From Candidatus Paceibacter sp. (GTDB lineage Bacteria > Patescibacteriota > Patescibacteriia > S139-126), in NCBI GenBank assembly GCA_020724865.1, contig DYGA01000001.1, positions 89,438 to 153,437 of the forward strand: a DNA stretch of 64,000 nucleotides, read 5' to 3'. Both the position numbers and the translations under genes were made by a program. A model generated the notes under the pieces. That model was not told the DNA's origin, did no database searches, and saw nothing but the letters and a program-made list of their open reading frames with translations. Positions 4,333-48,416 of this stretch are shown here, in pieces. How positions within the stretch are numbered: position 1 is the stretch's first letter; each line of letters begins with the position of its first letter.

Positions 4333-5685
4333 TTAATTTTTTTCAGCTTCTCCCTGTATAACTCCTAATACTAAGTTAGTTTTATTTTTTAATAACTGTT
4401 CATTATTTGCTTCGACTGTAACTCTTAATAGCGGTTCTGTGTTTGATGGACGGACATTGAACCACCAATCATTATATTCTACAGTAATCCCATCGGTAAA
4501 ATCTTGTTGACCATCTGAAAAATAATTTTTAATAACATCTATTTTTTCTTCGCTGTTGGTTACTGGTAAATTTATTTCAGCATTTTTGGCATACTTGTAA
4601 AAAGGTTTGACAACCGCTGATAAAGGCTGATTATATTCTGATAACAGTTGCATCATTATCAACCAAGAAATAAAACCAGAATCACTATAAAAATTATCTC
4701 GAAATGAATAATGTGCTGATAGTTCACCACCCATTATTCCATCCGCCGTCCGCATATTGTTCGCAATATTGATATAGCCGGCTGGTGATTTAATAGGCCT
4801 ACCGCCCCATTCACTAATTTTTTCCGGCACTATTTTTGAACAAATTACATTATAAACAATGCCCGCTCCCGGTTCTCTAGTTAAAAACATTTTAGCTAGC
4901 AGTAATAAAGTTATGTCAGCTCTAATAAAATTACCTAATTCATCAATAAAAAACAGTCGGTCAGTATCACCATCAAAAATTACTCCAAAATTTGCCTTAG
5001 TGGCAACTGTCTGTTCACTAATTTGAATCTGACTTTCCGGTAAAAGCGGGTTAGACGGATGAACAGGAAAACTGCCATCTAAATTAAAATTTAGAGGAAC
5101 TATTTGTATTGGTAAGTGTTTAGCCAATAAAGGAACAATTTTTCCAGCCATACCGTTTCCGGCATCAACCACCACTTTAAATGGTTTTATTTTATTGATG
5201 TCAACAAAAGATAAAACATGATCAATATATTTATTTAAAATATCAACTTTTTCAATTTGCCCTTTTTTAATATTTTCTAATGGTGGCAAATTTATAACTT
5301 CATCTTTTAATTCTATGCCTCTAACCCAATTCATCCCAGTAAATACCATTTTAAAACCATTATACTCAGCAGGATTGTGCGAAGCTGTTATCATTACCGC
5401 AGCGTCATAACCTAATTTCCCCACGGTAAAATAAGTGGCATCTATTGAAACCAAACCAATATCAACTGCAGTTAATCCCTCATCAGTAATACCACGAATT
5501 AATTCAGTTTTTAAAACCGGACCTGACAATCTCATATCACTACCCACTACTATTTTTTTACAACCATATTTTGTTTTCCCTCGTCTGGCCAAAGCCCGGC
5601 CAATACTATAAGCTGCTTCTTCATTTAATTCAGTGGGGTAAATACCACGAATATCATAAGCTTTGAATATTTTCTCATTTATCAT
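4333..5685 (-). CDS. glmM: Alpha-D-phosphohexomutase family (phosphoglucosamine mutase / phosphomannomutase)
   Basis: Active-site TASHNPAEYNGFK serine loop and a DGDTDR metal-binding loop. GlmM versus ManB specificity cannot be decided from sequence alone. Confidence 0.75.
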   Translation of the reverse strand: MINEKIFKAYDIRGIYPTELNEEAAYSIGRALARRGKTKYGCKKIVVGSDMRLSGPVLKTELIRGITDEGLTAVDIGLVSIDATYFTVGKLGYDAAVMITASHNPAEYNGFKMVFTGMNWVRGIELKDEVINLPPLENIKKGQIEKVDILNKYIDHVLSFVDINKIKPFKVVVDAGNGMAGKIVPLLAKHLPIQIVPLNFNLDGSFPVHPSNPLLPESQIQISEQTVATKANFGVIFDGDTDRLFFIDELGNFIRADITLLLLAKMFLTREPGAGIVYNVICSKIVPEKISEWGGRPIKSPAGYINIANNMRTADGIMGGELSAHYSFRDNFYSDSGFISWLIMMQLLSEYNQPLSAVVKPFYKYAKNAEINLPVTNSEEKIDVIKNYFSDGQQDFTDGITVEYNDWWFNVRPSNTEPLLRVTVEANNEQLLKNKTNLVLGVIQGEAEKN

Positions 5686-5783: not shown

Positions 5784-7325
5784 TTATTGAGCGGATTCCA
5801 TAATTTTTATTGGTCCACCCCAATCATTTGCCGACAATAAATCTTTAGCTAGTGGTACAACTACTGCTTTTTTATAAACATCAACTTCGGCTGGTTTGTC
5901 TAAAATCGGAAATATCAAAGCCGGAATATATAGCTCATCACCTTCAGAAGCCCCTGGTTTAAAATTCCACATTCTAATATAAGAAATTATAGGCGTACCC
6001 AAACCAACTTCCACCCGATTAGGAGCATCTTCCCACTGCCAACTGTAAAGTCCTCCTCGTTCGGCATACTTTAAAATGGTATCAACGTTGGTTTCCGCAT
6101 CATACAGAGAACTTTGGTAATTCTGAGCAAATAGATTCCATACACCAGTTGCTTTTTTATACCTAATATTTACATTGACATAAAGACCGGTTTTATTACC
6201 ACTCTCATCATATACTTCTTTACCTTGTAAAATTTGTGGATAAACTACTGAAACCACTTCAGGAATATAAACATCTTGTTTATTTTCTGCTCGTTCATAC
6301 CAAACTCGCCAATCATTATTTACTATCGGTTCACCATAAGAACTGGTATTAATTCCATAATTACTAATAAACTCATTAGCTAAAGCAATAATCTCTTCAT
6401 CTGAAAGCATATCATTGATACTTAACTGAAAACTTCGATAACAAGCGTCATCCTGACACTGACTCATCGGATTTGGCCACTTAGGATAATTTTCTGACAC
6501 CGAGATACTGCTATCATATAAATTAGCATAAATGGAATAACCAAATTCACGATCTTCAACAAAATTTAAATTTTGTAATTGAATATTGGTAAATTTACCA
6601 AGATCCATTAGACCAAAATCAACTCCAGTAAGTAAAGAACCTAACTGACTAGCACTAGCAGAATTTTTTACTCTTTTTAATACTCCAACTTTATCTTGAT
6701 TTAATTCTAAAGGTTCGCCTTTATAAACATAAGATATATAAACTGGCGCAGGCATAATCATTCCGCCACCGCCAAAACCAGGCTCAACTGAAGTGGCTAC
6801 TTTGTCTCCGGTCGCCACTGCTTCGGGAACTGTTTCTGACCTAACAGCTAAACTGCCTTCACCCATTCCTCCAGCCCCTAAACCTTCAACCCCAGCTGGT
6901 AATCCAGTATTTTGTGGCTGTAAAACCCCGAAGGCTCGATCAGAAACTTCTACCAAATTAAATTGTGAATTCAATGCTAATTTAGTTCCAGCCACACGAA
7001 ATTTAGGAGAAGTTAAATAAAAACTTGAACTAATAGCTAAGGCCATTACAGCTACGCCGACTGCTACGTAAGAGAAACTACGAGCAAATTTAAGAAAAGA
7101 AAATTTAAACATATATTTATCATTTAATTTTTTAGTATTTTTAATAGTATTTGCTTTTGCCAACAATTGAACTTTTAATTGCTGACGAAAACTTTCATCA
7201 AGCGAAACATCTGGTTTAGATTTAATTAATTCTTCCATAAGATTTATTAATTGCTTTTCATATTTTTTTAAATCCGGATCATTTTGATAAAGCTCGGTCA
7301 ATATTTCTTGATAAAAATTTTCCAT
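5784..7325 (-). CDS. Membrane protein co-transcribed with the ECF sigma factor; putative anti-sigma factor with a large extracytoplasmic domain
   Basis: Its start lies 2 nt after the sigma gene stop. It has an ~80-aa cytoplasmic N-terminus, a single TM (FARSFSYVAVGVAVMALAISSSFYL) and a ~400-aa external domain. The anti-sigma role is inferred from synteny only. Confidence 0.4.
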   Translation of the reverse strand: MENFYQEILTELYQNDPDLKKYEKQLINLMEELIKSKPDVSLDESFRQQLKVQLLAKANTIKNTKKLNDKYMFKFSFLKFARSFSYVAVGVAVMALAISSSFYLTSPKFRVAGTKLALNSQFNLVEVSDRAFGVLQPQNTGLPAGVEGLGAGGMGEGSLAVRSETVPEAVATGDKVATSVEPGFGGGGMIMPAPVYISYVYKGEPLELNQDKVGVLKRVKNSASASQLGSLLTGVDFGLMDLGKFTNIQLQNLNFVEDREFGYSIYANLYDSSISVSENYPKWPNPMSQCQDDACYRSFQLSINDMLSDEEIIALANEFISNYGINTSSYGEPIVNNDWRVWYERAENKQDVYIPEVVSVVYPQILQGKEVYDESGNKTGLYVNVNIRYKKATGVWNLFAQNYQSSLYDAETNVDTILKYAERGGLYSWQWEDAPNRVEVGLGTPIISYIRMWNFKPGASEGDELYIPALIFPILDKPAEVDVYKKAVVVPLAKDLLSANDWGGPIKIMESAQ

Positions 7326-7899: not shown

Positions 7900-8068
7900 A
7901 TTAAATATAAAGGTTTGCCTTGGCTATAATATCCTTGGCGGCGCGCCCGCCTAAATATATTTCGCCTTAATTTTACACTTATCATAACATTTTCTATTAA
8001 TTTTCTCACCTCTATATTTAAATACGTTATAAAAAGCTAAAAGTAACAGAAAAATTAAATTTGTTTGC

Positions 8069-8074
8069 TATAAT
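8069..8074 (+). promoter_or_regulatory. -10 box TATAAT within TTGCTATAAT, ending 6 nt before the uvrD ATG (probable leaderless transcript)
   Basis: tttgcTATAATaacccATG with no Shine-Dalgarno sequence. The same TTGCTATAAT arrangement occurs 6 nt upstream of rluD and ~70 nt upstream of tRNA-Ile. Confidence 0.5.
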
Positions 8075-8080
8075 AACCCT

Positions 8081-10090
8081 ATGACTAAAAAAATCTATAA
8101 TCTACGTACAACCAAACCAACAAAAATTCAACTTGATTACACTAAAGACTTAAATGCTGAACAGCAGTTAGTGGTAAAATCAGCCGATGGGCCCTGTTTG
8201 GTATTGGCTGGAGCCGGCAGTGGTAAAACCAGAACCTTAGTATATAGAGTGGCCTACTTACTAGAAAAAGGGGTACCGGCTGACAAAATTCTACTAATGA
8301 CTTTTACCAATAAAGCAGCTAAAGAAATGTTATGGCGCGTTGAGCAATTGCTTGGCTTTAAACCTCAGCAACTTTGGGGAGGAACCTTTCATCATATTGG
8401 CAATATGCTCTTAAGAAAATACATTCAACATCTAGGTTATAATCAAAATTATTCCATCTTTGATGAAGATGATGCAGAAACTTTATTACAATCTATCATA
8501 GCAGAAAAAAATATTAAAAAAGATAAATATTTCCCCAAAAGTGGGGTTTTGAAAAATCTTATTAGTTATAGCAAAAATTCTGGGCAACCAATAGAAAAAA
8601 TATATAAAGAAAAATTTTCTTACTTAAAAACAAACATCCTGCCTGATATTATTGACATAACTTATATTTATGAACAGCGAAAAAAACAACACAACGCTTT
8701 AGACTATGACGATTTATTGTTATTGTGGCTAAAATTAATGGAAACAAAACCTGTTGTAAGAAAGGAGATAATCAAAAAATTTCAATATATTTTGGTAGAT
8801 GAATATCAAGACACTAATCATTTACAAGCTAAAATTATTGAACACTTAAGCCAACAGCATAAAAATATTTTAGTAGTTGGAGATGACGCTCAAAGTATTT
8901 ACTCTTTTCGAGCTGCGGATATTAGCAATATTCTACAATTTCCTAAAAAAATATCTGGTACAAAAATTTTTAAACTAGAAAATAACTATCGCTCAACGCC
9001 AGAAATCTTAAAATTAGCCAACAATTCAATTAAAAATAATCTACATCAATTTCCCAAAAACTTAAAAGCTACCAGAGCCAGCGGGGAAAAACCAATCTTA
9101 ATACCCGCCCAAAATATTGAACAACAAGCACAATTTATTTCCCAAAGGATTATTGAACTCACAGAAGAAGGCTATAAATTACGAGATATAGCCGTTTTAT
9201 TTCGAGCTGATTTTCATGCTTTGGAACTTGAAATAGAATTAAACAAAAAAAATATACCCTATATTAAAAGGGGGGGAATAAAATTTTTTGAACAAGCTCA
9301 TCTTAAAGACATAATTTCTTTTTTAAAAATTTTACATAACCCTCATGATGAAATTGCCTGGACCAGAATTCTCAATCTTCAAGTTGGCATTGGCCGAGTC
9401 GGAGCACAAAAAATTATCAATCAATTTACCAGTCTTACTTTGGATAAAATATTAAATACAGACTTTATTTTACCTGCCAATTTAAAATCTACTTGGCAAA
9501 AATTTAAAACTGATTTAAATAAATTTTTTAATCATGATAAAAATGATATTGATGGTTGTATTAGAGAATTAATGTCATCATTCTATACGGTTTATCTGCA
9601 AACTAAATACGACAACGCTACCAAAAGAATCGAAGACATTGAACAACTAGAAAATTTCGCTTCAAATTATCAGCAACTTGAACAATTTTTGTCAGACATA
9701 TCTTTATCAGAAAACTTTCGCGCCGATGAAGTTAATCCTGAAAAAAATGAACCAGAAGATTTTTTAATTTTATCTACCATTCATCAAGCTAAAGGTTTAG
9801 AATGGCCGGTGGTATTTATTATAAATCTGGTTAGCGGACAATTTCCTCATGCCAAAGCTATGGAAAATAATGAGGAATTTGAAGAAGAAAGAAGATTATT
9901 TTATGTAGCTACTACCAGAGCTCAAAATTTATTATATATGGTTTATCCTAATATACTGTATAATCAATATTATGGTTTTATTTTTAGTCAACCTTCCGAA
10001 TTTATTCAAGAATTAGATAGTAACCTATATGATATTTGGAATATAACTACAACTGAGGATGAAGATTTGCCTACGATTGAATATCAATGA
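8081..10090 (+). CDS. uvrD: ATP-dependent DNA helicase UvrD/PcrA/Rep family
   Basis: Walker A LAGAGSGKTRTLVYRVAYL, motif II VDEYQDTN and helicase motifs V/VI. Confidence 0.9.
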   Translation: MTKKIYNLRTTKPTKIQLDYTKDLNAEQQLVVKSADGPCLVLAGAGSGKTRTLVYRVAYLLEKGVPADKILLMTFTNKAAKEMLWRVEQLLGFKPQQLWGGTFHHIGNMLLRKYIQHLGYNQNYSIFDEDDAETLLQSIIAEKNIKKDKYFPKSGVLKNLISYSKNSGQPIEKIYKEKFSYLKTNILPDIIDITYIYEQRKKQHNALDYDDLLLLWLKLMETKPVVRKEIIKKFQYILVDEYQDTNHLQAKIIEHLSQQHKNILVVGDDAQSIYSFRAADISNILQFPKKISGTKIFKLENNYRSTPEILKLANNSIKNNLHQFPKNLKATRASGEKPILIPAQNIEQQAQFISQRIIELTEEGYKLRDIAVLFRADFHALELEIELNKKNIPYIKRGGIKFFEQAHLKDIISFLKILHNPHDEIAWTRILNLQVGIGRVGAQKIINQFTSLTLDKILNTDFILPANLKSTWQKFKTDLNKFFNHDKNDIDGCIRELMSSFYTVYLQTKYDNATKRIEDIEQLENFASNYQQLEQFLSDISLSENFRADEVNPEKNEPEDFLILSTIHQAKGLEWPVVFIINLVSGQFPHAKAMENNEEFEEERRLFYVATTRAQNLLYMVYPNILYNQYYGFIFSQPSEFIQELDSNLYDIWNITTTEDEDLPTIEYQ

Positions 10091-10144: not shown

Positions 10145-11209
10145 ATGTCCAGTTTAAATACAAAAAATATGAATTTAGAAAACCTATTTGAAATTGCTGT
10201 AGAAAACAATGCTTCTGATATTCATCTTTTAGTAGGTAAATCGCCTATTTTACGTGTTTCTGGAGACTTAAAAGAACTTAATGATTTACCTATTATCGTC
10301 CCTGAACTTATTCAAAAAATGATTAAAGAAGCAATAAACGAAAAACAGTATGAGACCTTTATAAAAGATCGTGAATTAGATTTTTCTTATCCTTTAAAAA
10401 ATGGCACCCGCATGCGTGTTAATCTATTTTGGGAAAAAGAAAACATGGGCCTAGTCGCTAGAGTTGTGCCCAGTAAAATTCCAGCGATGAAAGAAATTAT
10501 GATGCCTGAAGTTGTTTATCGCTTAACTAGGTTAAATCAAGGATTAGTTTTGGTAACTGGACCCACTGGTTGTGGTAAATCCACTTCTCTGGCAGCTATG
10601 ATTGAGCTGATTAACTCAGAAAGAGGGGTAAATATTGTTACTCTAGAAGATCCAATTGAATTTGTTTATAAAAACAAAAAATCTATTATTAAACAACGTC
10701 AACTTGGTTCTGATATGCTATCTTTCCAATCAGCCTTAAAACACGTTCTACGCCAAGACCCTGATGTTATTTTGGTAGGAGAAATGCGGGATTTAGAAAC
10801 AATAGCTGCAACTATTACTTTGGCCGAAACTGGACACTTAGTTTTTGCTACCTTACATACGCTCAATGCCTCTCAAACTATTGACCGTATTATTGATGTT
10901 TTTCCGCCATACCAACAACCACAAGTAAGATTACAAGTCTCAATGACACTAGCCGGTATTGTTTCACAAAGACTCCTGCCAAAAAAAGATGGCGGCATGG
11001 TGGCTACTCGTGAAATTCTTATTAATACTCCAGCTATTTCAAATTTAATAAGAGAAAATAAAATTCAACAAATTAAAACTATTATCCAAACTTCAGCCGC
11101 GGAAGGCATGATTTCTATGGATCAAGATCTAAAACGATTATACAATGAAAACTATATCGATAAAGAAACTGCCAAACAATACATGATGGATCCCAATAGT
11201 TTAAAATAA
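10145..11209 (+). CDS. pilT: Type IV pilus retraction ATPase PilT
   Basis: GLVLVTGPTGCGKSTSLAAMI Walker A, Asp box, His box and the PilT-specific AISNLIRENKIQQI motif. Its 354-aa length fits PilT rather than PilB. Confidence 0.85.
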   Translation: MSSLNTKNMNLENLFEIAVENNASDIHLLVGKSPILRVSGDLKELNDLPIIVPELIQKMIKEAINEKQYETFIKDRELDFSYPLKNGTRMRVNLFWEKENMGLVARVVPSKIPAMKEIMMPEVVYRLTRLNQGLVLVTGPTGCGKSTSLAAMIELINSERGVNIVTLEDPIEFVYKNKKSIIKQRQLGSDMLSFQSALKHVLRQDPDVILVGEMRDLETIAATITLAETGHLVFATLHTLNASQTIDRIIDVFPPYQQPQVRLQVSMTLAGIVSQRLLPKKDGGMVATREILINTPAISNLIRENKIQQIKTIIQTSAAEGMISMDQDLKRLYNENYIDKETAKQYMMDPNSLK

Positions 11210-11224
11210 ATAAATTTTATATTA

Positions 11225-11254
11225 AAAAACTCCACCCTTATGGTGGATTTTTTA
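11225..11254 (+). terminator. Rho-independent terminator after pilT
   Basis: Hairpin tccacc-ctta-tggtgga followed by TTTTTT. Confidence 0.6.
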
Positions 11255-11321
11255 TGATGCTTTTGTTTTACGAAATCCTAATCTATTTTGAACGAAACTG
11301 ATAACACATGAACGCAGTCAA

Positions 11322-11400
11322 ATCGGTCAGTAAAATTTCTGAAAGTCAAATCTTGGTGCAATTATATGACCAAATCCGAACTCACTTCGAGCGGGACTAA
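11322..11400 (-). repeat. Decayed copy of the tRNA-Lys 3' end (…gttcggatttggtcatataattgCACCA) plus ~45 nt of its 3' trailer
   Basis: In minus sense, cacca-agatttgactttcagaaattttactgaccgatttgactgcg aligns at ~70% with the trailer directly 3' of tRNA-Lys (cacca-gtatcaaactttcaggaattttgccgaccgattcagccgcg). The T-loop-like gttcgga is retained. Confidence 0.55.
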
Positions 11401-11511
11401 CCGCCTCGCTTCGCTCGGCGTACGCTCGGGCGCGGCGGAATTCCCCCCTTGAACCCCCCTTCCGCCGCGCCCTCGCGGGAGGCCAAAAATTTTTTCGCCG
11501 CCAAAAATCAA
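11401..11511. other. GC-rich structured island with a perfect 13-bp stem gggcgcggcggaa/ttccgccgcgccc around a 19-nt C-rich loop, plus smaller GC palindromes
   Basis: Local GC is far above the genome background. The overlapping ORFs (11327..11569, 11449..11697) are Arg/Pro-rich translation artifacts. Confidence 0.5.
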
Positions 11512-11799
11512 CTAGAAAAGAGTATTGATTGCGATAGATCCACCAATCCAAAGCAGGATTGCCAACCACCCAAGGTTATTAGCCTTCTTAGCTTTCTTCG
11601 GCAATCTTTTTTTCCAGCCGTAGTAAAAAATCGCCTGTGCGATGAGGGGAGCAAACAGACACAAAATGAATACATACCAAAGAACATTTCCGCTTAGTGG
11701 TGATTCGTCCACCTGACCTTCGGGCACAGAGGATTTTTCTTTTCTCATCACAAAAAACGAAATGATGCCGGGGATGAGTGTGAAAATTAGTAAATTCAT
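11512..11799 (-). CDS. Small membrane protein (3 predicted TM helices), hypothetical
   Basis: ORF with hydrophobic segments and genome-typical AT-rich codon usage. Confidence 0.5.
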   Translation of the reverse strand: MNLLIFTLIPGIISFFVMRKEKSSVPEGQVDESPLSGNVLWYVFILCLFAPLIAQAIFYYGWKKRLPKKAKKANNLGWLAILLWIGGSIAINTLF

Positions 11800-11812
11800 A
11801 GTTTTTGATTAT

Positions 11813-12574
11813 TTATTTTTTAATTTGTAATTCTTCTCTCAGAAAATTAGTCAACGGGTGCGTATACACATTCAGTATATAACTATAAGGATTATCTGTA
11901 AACGGATTTTTTGTGGACAGTAAAGATTGCTGTACTTCTCTGATTGGGTTTGGATTTTCTTTGACCATTCTCTCTAATTCTTCTTGGGAGACAAAAATAG
12001 AGGTGTCATAAACTTGCACCGCTATTTCTCGACCTTTGTCAGTTTTTACAAATTCCACAGAATCCATTTCCGCTATTCGTTGCAATGCTTCCGAGGTAAA
12101 TGTTGATAATTCATCTCCTTGTATATTTAGACCAAATTTCTGCGGATTAGAAAGAATTGCGGCGTGAGAAGTAAAAACGGCTAGAAAAATTATTCCCATC
12201 GCTATAGCAATAGAAGGAAATTGTTTTTGAGGATTAACAAAACCGTAGTAAGAAGCGAGGGTGATTAGTCCAGTAGCAAGAATTAAATATACGAGTTGTA
12301 TTCCGTTCGGAATGGAAAAAAGTAAAATTCCAAGAGCAGCAGTAAGAGCCGCCCAACCAACAAAAATCCAACTTTTTTCACGGACAGTGAATAGTCCGAG
12401 TACAAATAAGCTCGCGAGCGTTATTGTAGTGCTAGAACTTAAAATTTTTTCTGGTACAGAAAACAAAAACAACGCGGGGATGAAAAATATCCCAGCGTAA
12501 ATCATCAATAGCCAACCCATAAATATAGCTGACGATTGGAAAAGCTGTTTATGTTTTTGAATGAAATTTTCCAT
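11813..12574 (-). CDS. Membrane protein (4-5 TM) with a C-terminal soluble domain, hypothetical. The start is reassigned to the internal Met (MENFIQ…); the upstream GC-rich extension is not coding-like.
   Basis: The ORF-track N-terminal 30 aa (ETLAPPAQRGSPSAGSSQRF) come from the GC-rich hairpin region and match neither the composition nor the usage of the rest of the gene. Confidence 0.5.
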   Translation of the reverse strand: MENFIQKHKQLFQSSAIFMGWLLMIYAGIFFIPALFLFSVPEKILSSSTTITLASLFVLGLFTVREKSWIFVGWAALTAALGILLFSIPNGIQLVYLILATGLITLASYYGFVNPQKQFPSIAIAMGIIFLAVFTSHAAILSNPQKFGLNIQGDELSTFTSEALQRIAEMDSVEFVKTDKGREIAVQVYDTSIFVSQEELERMVKENPNPIREVQQSLLSTKNPFTDNPYSYILNVYTHPLTNFLREELQIKK

Positions 12575-12597
12575 AGCAAAATTAAAAGGTTGCCGCC

Positions 12598-12721
12598 AAA
12601 GAAATCTTTGGCTCGAACCTGCGCTTGGCGAGCCGCGCTGTGCGGGGGGAGCCAGTGTTTCCATTCTCTGCCGCGCTTCGCGCGGCTGAATCGGTCGGCA
12701 AAATTCCTGAAAGTTTGATAC
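12598..12721 (-). other. tRNA-Lys 3' trailer module: conserved AACTTTcaGGAATT motif followed by GC-rich hairpins (gccgcgc-gaag-gcgcggc; ggctcg…cgagcc; ccaaag-attt-ctttgg)
   Basis: Lies directly 3' of tRNA-Lys on the minus strand. It is related to the orphan copy at 11322-11361 and more distantly to the 3' flanks of tRNA-Arg and tRNA-Leu(TAG). Confidence 0.5.
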
Positions 12722-12797
12722 TGGTGGGTCGCACAGGACTCGAACCTGTAACCAATTGCTTAAGAGGCAACTGCTCTACCAATTGAGCTAGCGACCC
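12722..12797 (-). tRNA. tRNA-Lys (anticodon CTT), CCA encoded
   Basis: Minus-sense gggtcgc-ta-gctc-aattggta-gagc-a-gttgc-ctCTTaa-gcaat-tggtt-acagg-ttcgagt-cctgt-gcgaccc-a-cca gives a cloverleaf with a 7-nt anticodon loop. Confidence 0.85.
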
Positions 12798-13022: not shown

Positions 13023-13535
13023 TTATGGTAAATTCCTATGAATTTTAGTTAAAAGAAACGGAGATAACAATGGTTTTAATTTTAATTGCTGTTTCCGCGT
13101 TAAATATTTAAACCCTTTAATATGACCAAAACAATTTTTGGCGCCACAGACACACTTGAAATCAGTACCCCACTTTTTCATATCCCACTCTGTAGTGAGG
13201 TAGTTAAAAGTTATCTCTTCATTTTTCGAAATATTTTTAATGGCAATAAACCATTTTTTTTCAGTATCAAGCTTAGTATTTGGTGAACAACTATGATTAA
13301 TAAAATCTTCTGGAACAAGATATTTTGTATCAATAAATTTATCCTTACTTATTTGCACCGCTTCCGGCGTAGAATTTGTGGCATTAACAAGCTTTCCTTT
13401 TAAAAAAATAATCTTATCACCTTTCCTAAATCTTTTATTGGCAAAAAGCGCTAATCCTTTTTTCCACACATAAACAACTTTAAGAGATTGAGGAATTTTC
13501 AAATTAAAAAGTCTTTTATTTTGCCTGATAAGCAT
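13023..13535 (-). CDS. SET-domain protein (putative lysine methyltransferase) with a post-SET Cys cluster
   Basis: SET signature motifs NHSCSPN and EEITFNY plus the post-SET CVCGAKNC. Confidence 0.75.
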   Translation of the reverse strand: MLIRQNKRLFNLKIPQSLKVVYVWKKGLALFANKRFRKGDKIIFLKGKLVNATNSTPEAVQISKDKFIDTKYLVPEDFINHSCSPNTKLDTEKKWFIAIKNISKNEEITFNYLTTEWDMKKWGTDFKCVCGAKNCFGHIKGFKYLTRKQQLKLKPLLSPFLLTKIHRNLP

Positions 13536-13713
13536 GGTTTAAAAAAAATTAATGACTGAAAAAATAAATTTGTTTACTTAATTTAATGCAAAAATCGGCC
13601 GAATTGCAAGAGAGGATAAATAAAACTTTATAAATTACTTAATGGAAAACTTATCACAAATGAAAATAATGTCGACAAAATTTGTGCCTATATTAATTAA
13701 AGATTGAAGAAAA

Positions 13714-14265
13714 TTAATTTTTCTCTTTTTCTTGGATTTGTTGGTATATTTCTTTTTTTAAATTTTCAAAAATCTGAAAAGATTGAGGAAAGTGTAGACG
13801 AATATACTCTAATACTGAAGGTTGCAATTTATTCATCATAAGGTAAGGGTAAAACTCTTCTTGATTCCTTAAAATAAATATTAAACCTGCTGTTTCGTTT
13901 TCAAAATCTAGTAAAATCGGATTAGCTTTCATAATTGCATCTTTTGATCTTTGATTATATTCATCTTCATTAATTTCTCCCTTTTGCAATAAATTAAATA
14001 AAAAATCGATTTCTTGTGACCAGCGTAATTCTTTTTCCTTAAAATCTTTTAAAATAAAATCACGCGCTTCATTTAAAACTACCCTTTGTTTTGTTGGCAA
14101 ATTATCTATTTCTTTGTGCAGTCGTTCATGTGCTAAAACATCACGAAAACCTTCTTTATGCAATTCATTCTCACTCAATACAATGTTGCCATTTTCAAAA
14201 TATGACATAAAAACTCGTGCTTCTTCTTCGGAATATCCTAACTGCTCCATTTTCTTTAAAAACAT
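13714..14265 (-). CDS. Hypothetical protein with an HExxH motif (AHERLH), possible small metallopeptidase-like fold
   Basis: ORF with typical composition and a single HExxH. No further recognisable family. Confidence 0.35.
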   Translation of the reverse strand: MFLKKMEQLGYSEEEARVFMSYFENGNIVLSENELHKEGFRDVLAHERLHKEIDNLPTKQRVVLNEARDFILKDFKEKELRWSQEIDFLFNLLQKGEINEDEYNQRSKDAIMKANPILLDFENETAGLIFILRNQEEFYPYLMMNKLQPSVLEYIRLHFPQSFQIFENLKKEIYQQIQEKEKN

Positions 14266-14435
14266 TATCTGTTTTTCCTGACTATTTAGATAGTTTTTTT
14301 AAAATAGCCTCCTGCTGGTGTTCCTATCATACCTGGATCAACTACTTCACCAAAGACAACCATTACTTTATTAGGCACCACGTACTCACCATTTTTAATA
14401 AGTTGGCAATTTTTTTCATACAAATTTTTCACTTC

Positions 14436-14804
14436 CTAAAAATATTCCATATTGATTGTTTTCTTCTCCTCAACTTCAGATTTGGTTTGAGCAAAAGCAG
14501 ATTCAGCCCTGATTAATGAAAAAATAACAACTAATGTCTTTAAGGCATTTCTCAATAGTGAATTATTTCGTATCTTTTCCAAAAATGATGGGGATTCAAT
14601 TACTTTTTCTACTTTTTTATCAATAATCTGTTCATTATCAGATGGCAAAATATCAAATTCATTTTTAAAGACTTGTTGTGCAGTAAAAATTTTTTCATTC
14701 TGTTCTAGCTCAAATTTTTGATCTCCAAACTTTTCAACTTCAATAGTTTTCGATTTTTCTTCATTTTTATTTGTAAAATTATTTTCAATATAATTTTCTT
14801 TCAT
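14436..14804 (-). CDS. Hypothetical acidic protein
   Basis: ORF only. A 170-nt gap to the next gene contains a further ~44-codon ORF, so frameshift or pseudogenisation is possible. Confidence 0.3.
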   Translation of the reverse strand: MKENYIENNFTNKNEEKSKTIEVEKFGDQKFELEQNEKIFTAQQVFKNEFDILPSDNEQIIDKKVEKVIESPSFLEKIRNNSLLRNALKTLVVIFSLIRAESAFAQTKSEVEEKKTINMEYF

Positions 14805-14984
14805 AAAATAATTTTATTAAACTCTAATAATTTTTCTTGATTAAATTGCATTAAATTAAGTAAGTTAAATTAAATTTTTTCCGTAACAACTTGATAGTAT
14901 TAGTAATAAATTTTCAAGTATCATAGAGCCTTTAATATTGTTTTATAAAATTTGCGTAAACTTTTTTTAATTTGTTAACTAGCG

Positions 14985-15027
14985 CGTGGACAGCGAGCGG
15001 AGCAATTAATTCCGACAAAGTTAGTTT
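14985..15027 (-). other. Conserved tRNA 3'-flank module (aaactaactttgtcggaattaattgctccgctcgctgtccacgcgc)
   Basis: ~90% identical over ~35 nt to the sequence directly 3' of tRNA-Leu(TAG) at 32757-32796. Confidence 0.5.
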
Positions 15028-15102
15028 TGGTGCACCCGGAGGGATTCGAACCCCCAACAACAGGTCCGAAGCCTGTCATGATATCCATTTCACCACGGGT
15101 GC
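15028..15102 (-). tRNA. tRNA-Arg (anticodon TCG), CCA encoded
   Basis: Minus-sense gcacccg-tg-gtga-aatggata-tcat-g-acagg-ctTCGga-cctgt-tgttg-ggggg-ttcgaat-ccctc-cgggtgc-a-cca. Confidence 0.8.
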
Positions 15103-28920: not shown

Positions 28921-29032
28921 AGTTCCCGCGCCGACCTACTTTCCCCAGATGAGTATCATCGGCGCTGATAGGCTTAACTTCCGTGTTCGGAATGAGAACG
29001 GGTGTGGCCCTATCGCTGTAGGCACGGGAACT
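28921..29032 (-). rRNA. rrf: 5S rRNA
   Basis: Minus-sense agttcccgtgcctacagcgatagggccacacccgttctcattccgaacacggaagttaagcct…ggcgcgggaact. Helix I closes the ends. Confidence 0.9.
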
Positions 29033-29079
29033 ATATATCTTATTTATAATTAAATAACTAAATAATTAGTCAATACAAT

Positions 29080-32234
<3,155 letters not shown>

Positions 32235-32583: not shown

Positions 32584-32744
32584 TAATATTCAATAAAAAA
32601 ATACAAAAATAAATAACAAACTGACAAAAAAATATATTATTTTTTAACAATTGGTGTATTTAACAACCACGCTCGAACGCATTTTAGTAAAAATTACTGA
32701 ACTTGAACAGCTACCCCTTTTTCTGCCCGCCCCTCCCGAGCGGA

Positions 32745-32796
32745 TTGGTTTTTGGCGCGTAGCGAATGGAGCAATTAATTTCGACAAAGTTAGTTT
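32745..32796 (-). other. Conserved tRNA 3'-flank module (copy at tRNA-Leu-TAG) followed by a GC-rich segment
   Basis: aaactaactttgtcgaaattaattgctccattcgctacgcgcc matches the tRNA-Arg flank. Confidence 0.5.
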
Positions 32797-32883
32797 TGGT
32801 GCCGGAGAGAGGACTTGAACCTCCACGGGGTTACCCCCACCAGCTCCTAAGGCTGGCGTGTATGCCAATTTCACCACTCCGGC
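32797..32883 (-). tRNA. tRNA-Leu (anticodon TAG), long variable arm
   Basis: Minus-sense gccggag-tg-gtga-…-ccagc-ctTAGga-gctgg-tgggggtaaccccgtg-gaggttcaagtcctc-tctccggc-a-cca. Confidence 0.85.
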
Positions 32884-46885: not shown

Positions 46886-48370
<1,485 letters not shown>

Positions 48371-48416
48371 AGTGAGAATTGATTGATCTCAAAATATGAG
48401 ATCTGACTCTCAAAAG

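Follow-up and report, generated by a model that had tools for sequence, protein, structure and literature searches.

Two small units lacking an integrase gene are stacked in tandem behind the intact tRNA-Lys gene in a 64,000-nt stretch of Candidatus Paceibacter sp. DNA (the window, by which the whole stretch analysed is meant). In each unit, a trailer motif (T) placed right after one CACCA forms the proximal end, and a second motif (F), followed by another CACCA, the distal end. With somewhat more confidence than doubt, we favour tandem accretion of att-flanked, CIME-like units behind the CCA end of tRNA-Lys, the recombinase having been supplied in trans or lost. An earlier note on this DNA had proposed one integrase-mediated insertion, bracketed by the tRNA and a decayed copy of its 3' end; the insertion at a tRNA end was upheld here, whereas the displaced tRNA-Lys fragment and the eroded state of the segment were not.

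Organization of the tRNA-Lys locus

Read in the direction of the tRNA, the locus consists of tRNA-Lys, CACCA, the unit E2 (T, ORF1-ORF2 and F), a second CACCA, the unit E1 (T and F), CATCA and the terminator shared with PilT (Table 1). E2 is 1368 nt long and E1 is a cargo-less unit of 99 nt; both displayed CACCA.T at the proximal end and F.CACCA at the distal end, and no recombinase gene was found within them. ARAGORN and Rfam confirmed the intact tRNA-Lys at one end. The CACCA end was present in 8 of the 8 tRNAs of the window, and the core common to the junctions comprised 5-6 nt only (CACCA, often followed by A). The repeat finder revealed no inverted repeat between T and F of the window. 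The E2/E1 boundary sites may act as att sites, as far as their sequence indicates, and F2.CACCA.T(B) resembles an attP because this junction is a joint between two elements.

Table 1. Coordinates of the tRNA-Lys locus and of related features in the window
Feature	Position	Strand	Basis or remark
PilT gene	10145-11209	+	Shares terminator with the locus
Bidirectional terminator hairpin (also that of PilT), nearest host flank past E1	11231..11247	.	Aligns with the L107 hairpin, same position
Decayed core CATCA	11255-11259	-	End of E1
E1 (T(B) to F1 plus CATCA), 99 nt	11255..11353	-	Orthology to L107
F1 of E1	~11260-11286	-	Second F, 99 nt beyond the first F.CACCA
T(B), trailer motif, proximal end of the presumed older unit E1	11313..11353	-	Repeat finder, alignments; copy B trailer of the earlier note
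Second CACCA, E2/E1 junction	11354..11358	-	Read from sequence
F2, pseudo-tRNA-end motif GAGTTCGGATTTGGTCATATAATTG, distal end of E2	11359..11383	-	"Decayed tRNA-Lys fragment" of the earlier note
M1, GC-rich module of the E2 right arm	11391..11504	-	Similarity to L088
ORF2, 95 aa, small hydrophobic protein	11512..11799	-	Directly after ORF1 in every locus
ORF1, 253 aa, true start MENFIQ	11813..12574	-	20 homologues
E2 left arm (patch A), non-coding, 55-65% GC	12575..12721	-	Composition
T(A), trailer motif, tRNA-proximal end of E2	12681..12721	-	71% to T(B), 67% to the L088 tRNA-Val trailer
Proximal junction CACCA, last five bases of tRNA-Lys	12722-12726	-	Sequence
tRNA-Lys(CTT), intact	12722..12797	-	ARAGORN; Rfam tRNA model 73 bits
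Three accessory genes between tRNA-Arg and tRNA-Lys	13023-14804		3' of the T behind tRNA-Arg
T motif behind tRNA-Arg(tcg)	14987..15027	-	83% identity with the tRNA-Leu T
tRNA-Arg(tcg)	15028-15102	-	Bears T motif
Sister unit T..F.CACCA, 145 nt, cargo-less	32652..32796	-	Directly behind tRNA-Leu(tag)
tRNA-Leu(tag)	32797-32883	-	Bears the 145-nt sister unit

E1 is orthologous, at its distal end, to a segment of the related genome L107. Together with its flank, E1 aligned with L107 positions 6215-6420 at a local score of 68 (27 or less in 500 shuffles), the first ungapped stretch of this alignment being around 87% identical (46/53), and the terminator downstream of E1 was also orthologous. L107 and the window have this distal flank, F1 with the terminator, in conserved form but carry different cargo.

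The arms of E2 shared sequence with another genome, L088. Positions 12650-12703 of patch A were 78% identical to L088 7295-7348, which has the same placement relative to the L088 tRNA-Val; this patch also contained a hairpin (GCCGCGC-GAA-GCGCGGC, 12670-12686) and, at 12588-12614, a remnant resembling, by eye only, an inverted terminus of M1. Positions 11422-11504 of M1 were 95% identical to L088 5544-5625, inverted in that genome, and 73% identical to L088 7087-7176, and M1 presented a perfect 13-bp hairpin with its arms within 11423-11440 and 11460-11477. Contigs of the same species terminated at ~12638-12648 and ~12736, hinting at heterogeneity there.

Structured RNA was rejected for the GC-rich patches, with no Rfam match at E values up to 10 and fold z values of -2.0, -1.0 and +0.05. 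The value of -1.0 corresponded to patch A, itself without Rfam match, and M1 gave -2.0; the z of -2.0 of patch B stems from one hairpin. When six junction strands were folded as DNA, z ranged from +0.15 to -1.0, with no attC-like folding. Neither ARAGORN nor the Rfam tRNA model detected a tRNA signal in F, and its interpretation as a pseudo-tRNA, tmRNA or split tRNA was discarded, both searches being empty and hand-pairing of the acceptor and T stems having failed.

The direct repeat behind tRNA-Lys

The minus-sense sequence on which the earlier note had based its repeat was found where it had been located. An independent repeat finder recovered the pair at 11321-11358 and 12689-12726 (38 nt, 79% identity), in the same orientation and 1368 nt apart. 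A 26-nt core, ACTTTCAGRAATTTTRCYGACCGATT, occurred as two exact copies in the 64 kb against an expectation of 0.00 (100 shuffles). Local alignment of the copies gave a score of 37, which was reached by none of 1000 shuffles (mean 18.5, sd 2.6, maximum 36), a margin of one point, and the best unrelated spot in a scan of the whole window scored 25. Chance similarity was excluded by these shuffles and the scan.

The similarity of about 70% to the tRNA-Lys 3' end plus trailer reported in the earlier note held for the trailer and failed for the tRNA body. Over the 41 nt located 3' of CACCA, T(A) and T(B) were 71% identical, in contrast with 37-47% for five other tRNA trailers, and the repeated part was restricted to CACCA plus T. 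In the 22 nt preceding CACCA, anchored at this core, F2 and tRNA-Lys coincided at 3 of 22 positions; the identity of 44% obtained with gaps lay within the 40-50% found for all eight tRNAs of the window and was due only to the generic GTTCG of the T-loop. Anchored in the same way, F2 matched F1 at 17/22 positions in L107 and 15/22 in the window, and the L088 copies of F at 14-15/22.

Copy B is, instead of a displaced piece of tRNA-Lys, a member of an F.CACCA.T family (example sequence: GTTCGRNNNTGGTNNNNNNNNNNNCACCARAYNNRACTTT) that also occurs behind tRNA-Leu(tag) and in two other genomes, and a paralogue of the second, more distal copy F1. Nor does the repeated trailer belong to tRNA-Lys itself; it is the proximal end of a unit, and the motif is found as well behind tRNA-Arg, tRNA-Leu(tag) and a tRNA-Val elsewhere. 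T(B) was in fact equally close to this tRNA-Val trailer of L088 (69%) and to T(A) (71%). As read from the sequence, the direct repeat consists of the T motifs of E2 and E1. Its copies do lie at element boundaries, as had been proposed, although at those of two stacked units in place of a single insertion.

T and F at other tRNA genes and the tRNA-Lys site in relatives

Of the eight tRNAs in the window, three (Lys, Arg and Leu-tag) were followed by T and five were not; T also followed the tRNA-Val of L088. It was absent behind the orthologous tRNAs of L103, L107, L108 and L131, the tRNA in question being tRNA-Lys in the first three. Copies of T and F were found in this genome and three others only, and the HMM matches were mostly the seed sequences themselves. 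At the tRNA-Leu(tag) site, a clean presence/absence was obtained: the window has the 145-nt unit and L131 lacks it, tRNA-Leu.CACCA in L131 being directly followed by AATTGT, equal to what comes after the second CACCA in the window, the match past CACCA being of 5 nt (ATTGT) only and inside a poorly conserved AT-rich spacer. In L108, tRNA-Arg and tRNA-Lys were 135 nt apart.

Relatives carried different cargo behind tRNA-Lys: a serine hydrolase gene in L103 (PilT 95% identical), an ArsR/thioredoxin/ArsP block in L107 (PilT 88%) and other genes in L108 (PilT 72%). A PilT search of species-representative genomes had returned distant genomes only (61% identity or less), and the sister genomes were found through protein look-ups. 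The ORF1-ORF2 cassette was absent behind tRNA-Lys in all three of these relatives; the segment with the two genes is accessory and was inserted immediately 3' of the intact tRNA-Lys CCA. The two genes and both repeats were not syntenic in a core context of relatives, a result in favour of the insertion proposed in the earlier note.

The ORF1-ORF2 cassette

The segment contained, as described before, two ORFs of membrane type and no integrase. ORF1 displayed five predicted N-terminal helices fitting a membrane segment and a conserved C-terminal domain, and its AlphaFold2 model was poor (pLDDT 57). Its family is small, with 20 homologues of 55-100% identity and only 14 clusters among 1.84 billion representatives in a profile search. 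No match was obtained for ORF1 or ORF2 in Pfam, PHROGs, PADLOC or PDB. The cassette is under purifying selection, with dN/dS of 0.14-0.24 for ORF1 and 0.05-0.09 for ORF2; these values (0.05-0.24) contradict the eroded state formerly attributed to it. The suggested search for phage cargo was also negative, with no PHROGs match for either protein; a phage origin was discarded, neither the cassette nor the F motif appearing in IMG/VR, and a GC-rich M1 pattern in 18 viral contigs showed weak and partial BLAST similarity that was treated as chance. A joint transcript of tRNA-Lys and ORF1-ORF2 is probable, as neither a promoter nor a terminator was recognized in the sequence between them. No integrase or transposase was found in E2, in about 10 kb on either side or among 20 further ORFs of the window.

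The cargo is mobile. The ORF1-ORF2 pair occurred in at least eight contexts, six of them at 600 nt or less from a tRNA (Lys, Val, Ala, Ser, Gln and Lys), confirming that the cassette also lies beside other tRNAs in other genomes, and its GC content was 32-42% in host loci of 29-58% GC. The neighbouring tRNA of L099 was divergent and upstream of the cassette, and no tRNA was found near it in L100 and L102; in the latter a fragment of an rve_3 transposase lay beside the cassette. Identical ORF1 appeared in the same locus only, in three assemblies, and in no other context. Inverted repeats flanked the cassette in L095 (206 nt, 97%, adjoining tRNA-Gln at its CCA end and bordered on the outside by GCCAT at either end), in L092 (204 nt, 91%, with outer ends resembling F.CACC) and in L088 (70-96 nt, 73-80%), the last of which presented in addition a pair of 331 nt and 97% around a neighbouring cargo segment. 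A 318-aa protein of this neighbouring segment was considered as a hidden recombinase and dropped, no match having been found. Units occurred in L088 in either orientation and also away from tRNAs, and its M1 bore 9-bp inverted termini, TTGGCGGYG, recognized by eye.

Proposed origin of the units and alternative explanations

In the accretion that we favour, E1 would be the older unit, present before the window genome split from its sister lineage, and E2 would have been inserted later, at the same CACCA, between tRNA-Lys and E1, bringing along a membrane-protein pair that moves horizontally among Patescibacteria. Conservative site-specific recombination between the F.CACCA.T of the element and a tRNA gene terminating in the generic CACCA would be the most likely route, by means of a recombinase supplied in trans or since lost. 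Excision of E2 would leave tRNA-Lys.CACCA.T(B), that of both units tRNA-Lys.CACCA.TAAAAAAT, and the joint of the circle would be F2.CACCA.T(A). We infer the enzyme, the crossover point and the present mobility of the units from this anatomy, no recombinase having been identified anywhere, and our confidence in the whole reading is a little above even. Classical tRNA-targeting integrases use a longer shared stretch of the tRNA 3' end, and one tRNA only.

A non-autonomous transposon of the mobile insertion cassette or MITE type, moved by a DDE transposase from elsewhere that prefers tRNA CACCA ends and duplicates CACCA as a 5-bp target, is a possible but considerably less probable origin. It is in line with the long inverted repeats bounding the cassette in L095, L092 and L088, with the F.CACC-like outer ends of those in L092, with the rve_3 fragment of L102, with the M1 termini seen by eye in L088 and with the CACCA at all junctions of the window; however, T and F of the window do not form an inverted pair, a transposase with such ends was not found, inverted arms could also arise from units at two convergent tRNAs (tRNA-Tyr and tRNA-Val of L088), and a duplicated CACCA, like the GCCAT on either side in L095, is indistinguishable from a recombination core. 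The single integrase insertion of the earlier note, in which the distal copy would be the original tRNA-Lys 3' end with its native trailer in decay, accounts for the intact tRNA, for the CACCA repeat that lies at the opposite end in the same orientation and for an accessory segment in between that is missing from relatives. It is nonetheless largely refuted, and we regard it as very improbable, given the identity of F2 to F copies elsewhere (14-17/22) vs. tRNA-Lys (3/22, 44% gapped), that of T(B) to a tRNA-Val trailer outside this genome (69%) vs. T(A) (71%), another F.CA(T)CA 99 nt further on, tRNA-Lys trailers without T in three relatives and genes that are not eroded.

It is also unlikely that no dedicated mobility was involved, that is, that T, F and the GC-rich arms are ordinary intergenic signals (tRNA processing, termination, small RNAs) and the cargo was swapped by homologous recombination, with the tRNA and flanks as anchors. 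tRNA genes are natural homology anchors, F1 and the terminator were kept between the window and L107 despite different cargo, and a genome of 34% GC has retained GC-rich patches, all of which would fit; yet only three of eight tRNAs in the window bear T, the orthologous tRNAs of relatives do not, arms and junctions did not outdo shuffled sequences in folding, whether computed as RNA or as single-stranded DNA (z between +0.15 and -1.0, with -2.0 for patch B), no Rfam family matched, units of L088 are found in either orientation and off tRNAs, and presence/absence is clean at the tRNA-Leu site.

Going beyond tandem accretion, we put forward, as a speculative extension with the odds well against it, that Patescibacteria harbour an undescribed family of miniature enzyme-less units that use CACCA tRNA ends as a generic landing pad, stack proximally and shuttle cargo across GC contents, driven by a recombinase or HUH-type enzyme not yet recognized. 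Gene exchange in bacteria of the candidate phyla radiation (CPR) is poorly understood because their tiny genomes have few recognizable mobile elements. One window of 64 kb presented the same end motif at three tRNAs with different cargo, relatives have swapped cargo at each site, and a rare two-gene module lies beside tRNAs in genomes of 29%-58% GC. A generic insertion system at tRNA CCA ends, if true, would explain part of the gene flux in CPR, and T, F and CACCA are concrete motifs for tracing the enzyme; if the units were merely wreckage of ordinary integrase elements, they would still illustrate neatly how elements accrete in tandem in an uncultivated lineage.

Comparison with known systems

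Like integron cassettes, the units lack a promoter and a recombinase, contain one or two genes and follow one another in a single orientation, with a short conserved core at the boundaries and the newest nearest the fixed site; empty versions exist as well. In contrast, no IntI gene or attI was recognized among the annotated and tested ORFs of the window, the F.CACCA.T junctions lacked attC-like hairpins (z about 0) and the fixed site is a tRNA end.

MIC231 of Bacillus cereus is an example of a mobile insertion cassette (MIC). With MICs and MITEs the units share a small size, the absence of transposase, one to three passenger genes, the long inverted repeats flanking the cassette in three other genomes and the coexistence of cargo-less miniatures with cargo-bearing versions, whereas the T/F ends of the window are not inverted repeats and the strict placement behind a tRNA CCA end is atypical of MICs. 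We know of no parent IS whose ends match the units. Mobile insertion cassettes of Tn3-like elements have been described (PMC4337579). Placement after CACCA and non-inverted ends would also fit the IS200/IS605 type. GCGAAGC-type hairpins recur in the arms, and whole units fold no better than shuffles. Elements of this type insert 3' of a fixed target of 4-5 nt and have subterminal hairpins, with a Y1 (HUH) transposase in the genome.

As in tRNA-linked islets, a hypervariable segment lies directly 3' of a tRNA, its cargo differs in each close relative and its composition mismatches the host in some genomes; unlike in islets, a repeated pair of end motifs is common to different tRNA sites and genomes. 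Compared with integrase elements at tRNA genes, the locus has the intact tRNA and the absence from relatives, and lacks an internal integrase and a distal repeat of the tRNA itself.

CIMEs and the tandem accretion of integrative elements at tRNA genes were reportedly described by Pavlovic et al. in 2004. The units differ from CIMEs in size (99-1368 nt vs. kilobases to tens of kilobases), in a core that is CACCA(A) at the extreme end and not a longer tRNA block, in forming one family behind several different tRNAs, and in that no related autonomous ICE, IME, prophage or integrase was seen in the loci examined or, for the cassette and F motif, in IMG/VR. Both CIMEs and accretion in tandem at tRNA genes are documented, one example being at a tRNA-Lys (PMC5704250). 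The likeness to them consists of units flanked by att-like sites at a tRNA 3' end, without genes for integration or transfer, and of the order of the elements, the newer one adjoining the target gene and followed by an older, decayed one, with an attP-like joint in between.

Results

The direct repeat behind tRNA-Lys

The window (34% GC) comes from an AT-rich Patescibacteria genome, and the closest named relatives of its PilT were Kuenenbacteria (59-60% identity). The sequence quoted in an earlier note was present, and a repeat finder returned a direct repeat of 38 nt, 79% identical and spaced 1368 nt apart, whose 26-nt core had two copies in the 64 kb against none expected. Its local alignment score of 37 was reached by none of 1000 shuffles (mean 18.5, sd 2.6, top 36), and elsewhere in the window no place scored above 25. 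The note had described a copy of the tRNA-Lys 3' end together with its trailer. The trailer was indeed repeated (CACCA and the following 41 nt, 71% identity) but the tRNA body was not, since the 22 nt preceding CACCA gave 3/22 matches to tRNA-Lys when anchored and 44% with gaps allowed, equal to any of the eight tRNAs of the window. All eight terminate in CACCA, and the core is thus generic to tRNA genes here.

Positions of the features considered (window unless another locus is named)
Locus	Feature	Position
window	tRNA-Lys(CTT), minus strand	12722-12797
window	direct repeat	11321-11358 / 12689-12726
window	flank aligned with L107	11255-11286
window	first terminator after tRNA-Lys/cassette	11231-11247
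window	M1, GC-rich, 83 nt	11422-11504
L088	inverted copy of M1	5544-5625
window	T behind tRNA-Arg(tcg)	14987-15027
window	T behind tRNA-Leu(tag)	32756-32796
window	second CACCA behind tRNA-Leu(tag)	32652
window	tRNA-Leu(tag) unit and surroundings	32652-32883
L131	empty tRNA-Leu(tag) site	4700-4904
L129	261-aa gene at tRNA-Leu(tag)	601-1885
L088	331-nt inverted repeat arms	2192-2522, 5183-5513
window	mini-hairpin cores	12670-12686, 11403-11419
L107	mini-hairpin core	~6325
L103	mini-hairpin cores	~8005, ~8115
L092	mini-hairpin core	~5655
L095	mini-hairpin core	~5480
window	ends of contigs L002, L005, L007	~12638-12648, ~12736
window	tRNA-Arg(tcg) region	13023-15102
L108	tRNA-Arg to tRNA-Lys	9188-9474
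L108	palindromic repeat	9300-9330, 9540-9575
L103	tRNA-Arg remnant	7900-8122
L107	tRNA-Arg remnant	9040-9212
window	rRNA genes	28923-32224, 46887-48371
L102	rve_3 fragment	1310-1594

Two stacked units and their motifs

Against L107, a sister genome (PilT 88% identical), alignment of the right flank uncovered a second, decayed copy of F, the pseudo-tRNA-end motif that precedes a CACCA: GATTAGGATTTCGTAAAACAAAAGCATCA/TAAAAAAT of the window aligns to GGTTCGGATTTCGTCAAACAAACGCACCA/TAAAAATT of L107 (local score 68; 500 shuffles ≤27), and the terminator hairpin after it is orthologous in L107 too. This second F and the orthologous flank give the locus order tRNA-Lys.CACCA.E2.CACCA.E1.CATCA.terminator-PilT, in which the unit E2 (1368 nt) reads T(A)-patch A-ORF1-ORF2-M1-F2 and E1 (99 nt) reads T(B)...F1 and then CATCA, T being the trailer motif right after a CACCA. 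T(A) and T(B), like F2 and F1, are paralogous pairs, and the repeat therefore represents the proximal ends of a stacked pair of units from the same family; at its distal end, E1 is older than the divergence from L107. The arrangement was found in three independent assemblies. Three same-species metagenome contigs stop in patch A or tRNA-Lys, which may reflect population heterogeneity at the E2 junction or assembly trouble in GC-rich hairpins.

Within the window T also follows tRNA-Arg(tcg) and tRNA-Leu(tag) (mutual identity 83%), and the copy behind tRNA-Val in L088 shares 67-69% identity with T(A) and T(B); the remaining five window tRNAs have unrelated AT-rich trailers (37-47%). F lies ~125 nt behind tRNA-Leu(tag), where it terminates in a second CACCA. 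The sister genomes L107 and L103 have one copy each and L088 has two, inside a 331-nt inverted repeat (97%). Anchored on CACCA, F2 matched F of L107 at 17/22 positions and F of L088 at 14-15/22. Each arm of the L088 repeat carries an F.CACCA.T junction, and together they enclose a NUDIX / 318-aa / NlpC-like / M23 peptidase segment between tRNA-Tyr and the cassette (the ORF1-ORF2 pair).

The non-coding ends of E2 are GC-rich (55-69%). M1 is 95% identical to its inverted copy upstream of the L088 cassette, despite dS values of 0.5-1.3 for the adjacent ORFs; it forms a 13-bp hairpin, with 9-bp inverted termini (TTGGCGGYG) in L088, and may either be an independent miniature element or be under strong constraint. 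Patch A plus T(A) is 78% identical to the L088 stretch between cassette and tRNA-Val, patch A keeping its orientation relative to the tRNA but not to the cassette. In other lineages the cassette lies between long inverted repeats, namely in L095 (206 nt, 97%, adjoining the CCA end of tRNA-Gln), L092 (204 nt, 91%, outer ends resembling F.CACC) and L088 (70-96 nt, 73-80%). All loci examined had mini-hairpin cores, GCGAAGC (or GCAAAGC), in their GC-rich arms; GCGAAGC is known as an extraordinarily stable DNA mini-hairpin (PMC13037366). Arms and junctions matched no Rfam family, and whole-unit folding as RNA or single-stranded DNA was no better than for shuffles.

Variability behind tRNA genes

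In all relatives the flanks are syntenic, UvrD-PilT at one end and HU-YmdB-RNase Y at the opposite end, and the content between them varies. L103 (PilT 95%) has tRNA-Lys.CACCA, 11 nt, a serine hydrolase gene and PilT; L107 has a terminator, a 162-aa ORF, ArsP, thioredoxin, ArsR, a GC-rich arm, F.CACCA, an NMN-transporter-like gene and PilT; L108 (PilT 72%) has tRNA-Arg and tRNA-Lys 135 nt apart, then a 417-aa ORF, NUDIX and PilT. Cassette and T were absent behind tRNA-Lys in all three, and the site is hypervariable. The tRNA-Leu(tag) locus is a presence/absence pair: in L131 tRNA-Leu(tag).CACCA runs directly into AATTGTATT..., and in the window a cargo-less 145-nt T..F.CACCA unit, upstream of the 23S-5S operon, separates the tRNA from the resuming ATTGTTAAA, the conserved rRNA promoter coming next in both. 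At this spot L129 has a 261-aa gene whose weak match to Exo_endo_phos falls short of the Pfam cut-off.

Three accessory genes (122 aa, 183 aa and a SET-domain protein) split the window tRNA-Arg(tcg), with its T, from tRNA-Lys. L103 and L107 retain only a tRNA-Arg 3' remnant (..AATCCCTCCGGGTGCACCA) adjoining the tRNA-Lys promoter; before this remnant, a T-loop-like TTCGAA is interrupted by a conserved GC-rich insert of 110-125 nt, and this region looks like a separate integration scar. A short CCTGCCTGCCGGCAGGCAGG-like palindrome occurs in L108 inside a duplicated tRNA-Arg 5' fragment and again between tRNA-Arg and tRNA-Lys. The rRNA genes of the window are unlinked (16S 14.7 kb from 23S-5S), and the 23S match exceeds its model (3141 vs. 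2925 nt), which suggests an insertion.

The cargo

ORF1 (253 aa) and ORF2 (95 aa) are paired in every locus. ORF1 has a conserved C-terminal domain; the helices of a low-confidence model point to a membrane part before it. A search of 5.8 billion proteins gave 20 homologues of ORF1, and the protein forms 14 clusters in a set of 1.84 billion representatives. The pair was found in eight contexts, the nearest tRNA being Lys (window), Val (L088), Ala (L090), Ser (L092), Gln (L095), a divergent Lys (L099), Ser 1.6 kb away (L102) and none (L100); a tRNA lay <600 nt away in six, against ~10% on a rough estimate for gene pairs placed at random in a 1-Mb genome that has ~45 tRNAs. GC of the pair was steady (0.32-0.42 vs. 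0.29-0.58 for host loci; 0.42 vs. 0.58 in L092) and dN/dS was low (0.14-0.24 for ORF1, 0.05-0.09 for ORF2), so the cargo is functional and horizontally mobile, contrary to the "old, eroded" element of the earlier note. L092 has an XRE-type HTH gene ahead of ORF1; in L088 and L095 this gene is decayed, and the window lacks it. An rve_3 (IS3/IS481-type) transposase fragment lies directly upstream of ORF1 in L102, one metagenome contig. Since no promoter-like or terminator-like site was found between tRNA-Lys and ORF1 in the window and the first terminator follows the cassette, co-transcription with tRNA-Lys is likely on sequence grounds.

Discussion

We lean, with some reserve, toward accretion of the CIME type, CIMEs being units that keep att sites without an integrase; accretion at tRNA genes, tRNA-Lys included, is documented (PMC5704250). 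An element site F.CACCA.T would recombine with tRNA.CACCA to give tRNA.CACCA.T...F.CACCA.flank, and a further event of this kind at that tRNA end would place the newer unit, E2, proximal to E1 and leave the attP-like joint F2.CACCA.T(B). The enzyme would have been supplied in trans or since lost, because neither integrase nor transposase was found in E2, ~10 kb on each side or the other window ORFs tested.

The inverted arms around the cassette in other genomes and the rve_3 fragment would suit a mobile insertion cassette moved by a transposase that duplicates 5 bp (CACCA), but the T and F ends are not inverted, and we consider this origin improbable. Less probable still is that homologous recombination between the conserved flanks swaps cargo, T and F being ordinary signals. 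Least credible is the single insertion of the earlier note, with a displaced tRNA-Lys end.

In a more speculative reading, which we consider improbable, an unrecognised enzyme would drive a generic cassette system at tRNA CCA ends in Patescibacteria. A classical integrase island differs in two defining features that are missing here, an integrase gene within the element and a repeated tRNA body, and the integron cassette in the features tested, there being neither an attC-like fold nor an intI gene. In its workings the locus resembles a CIME or accretion array, although its units are miniature (99-145 nt without cargo), its very short core sits at the extreme 3' end, and a single family lies behind several different tRNAs.
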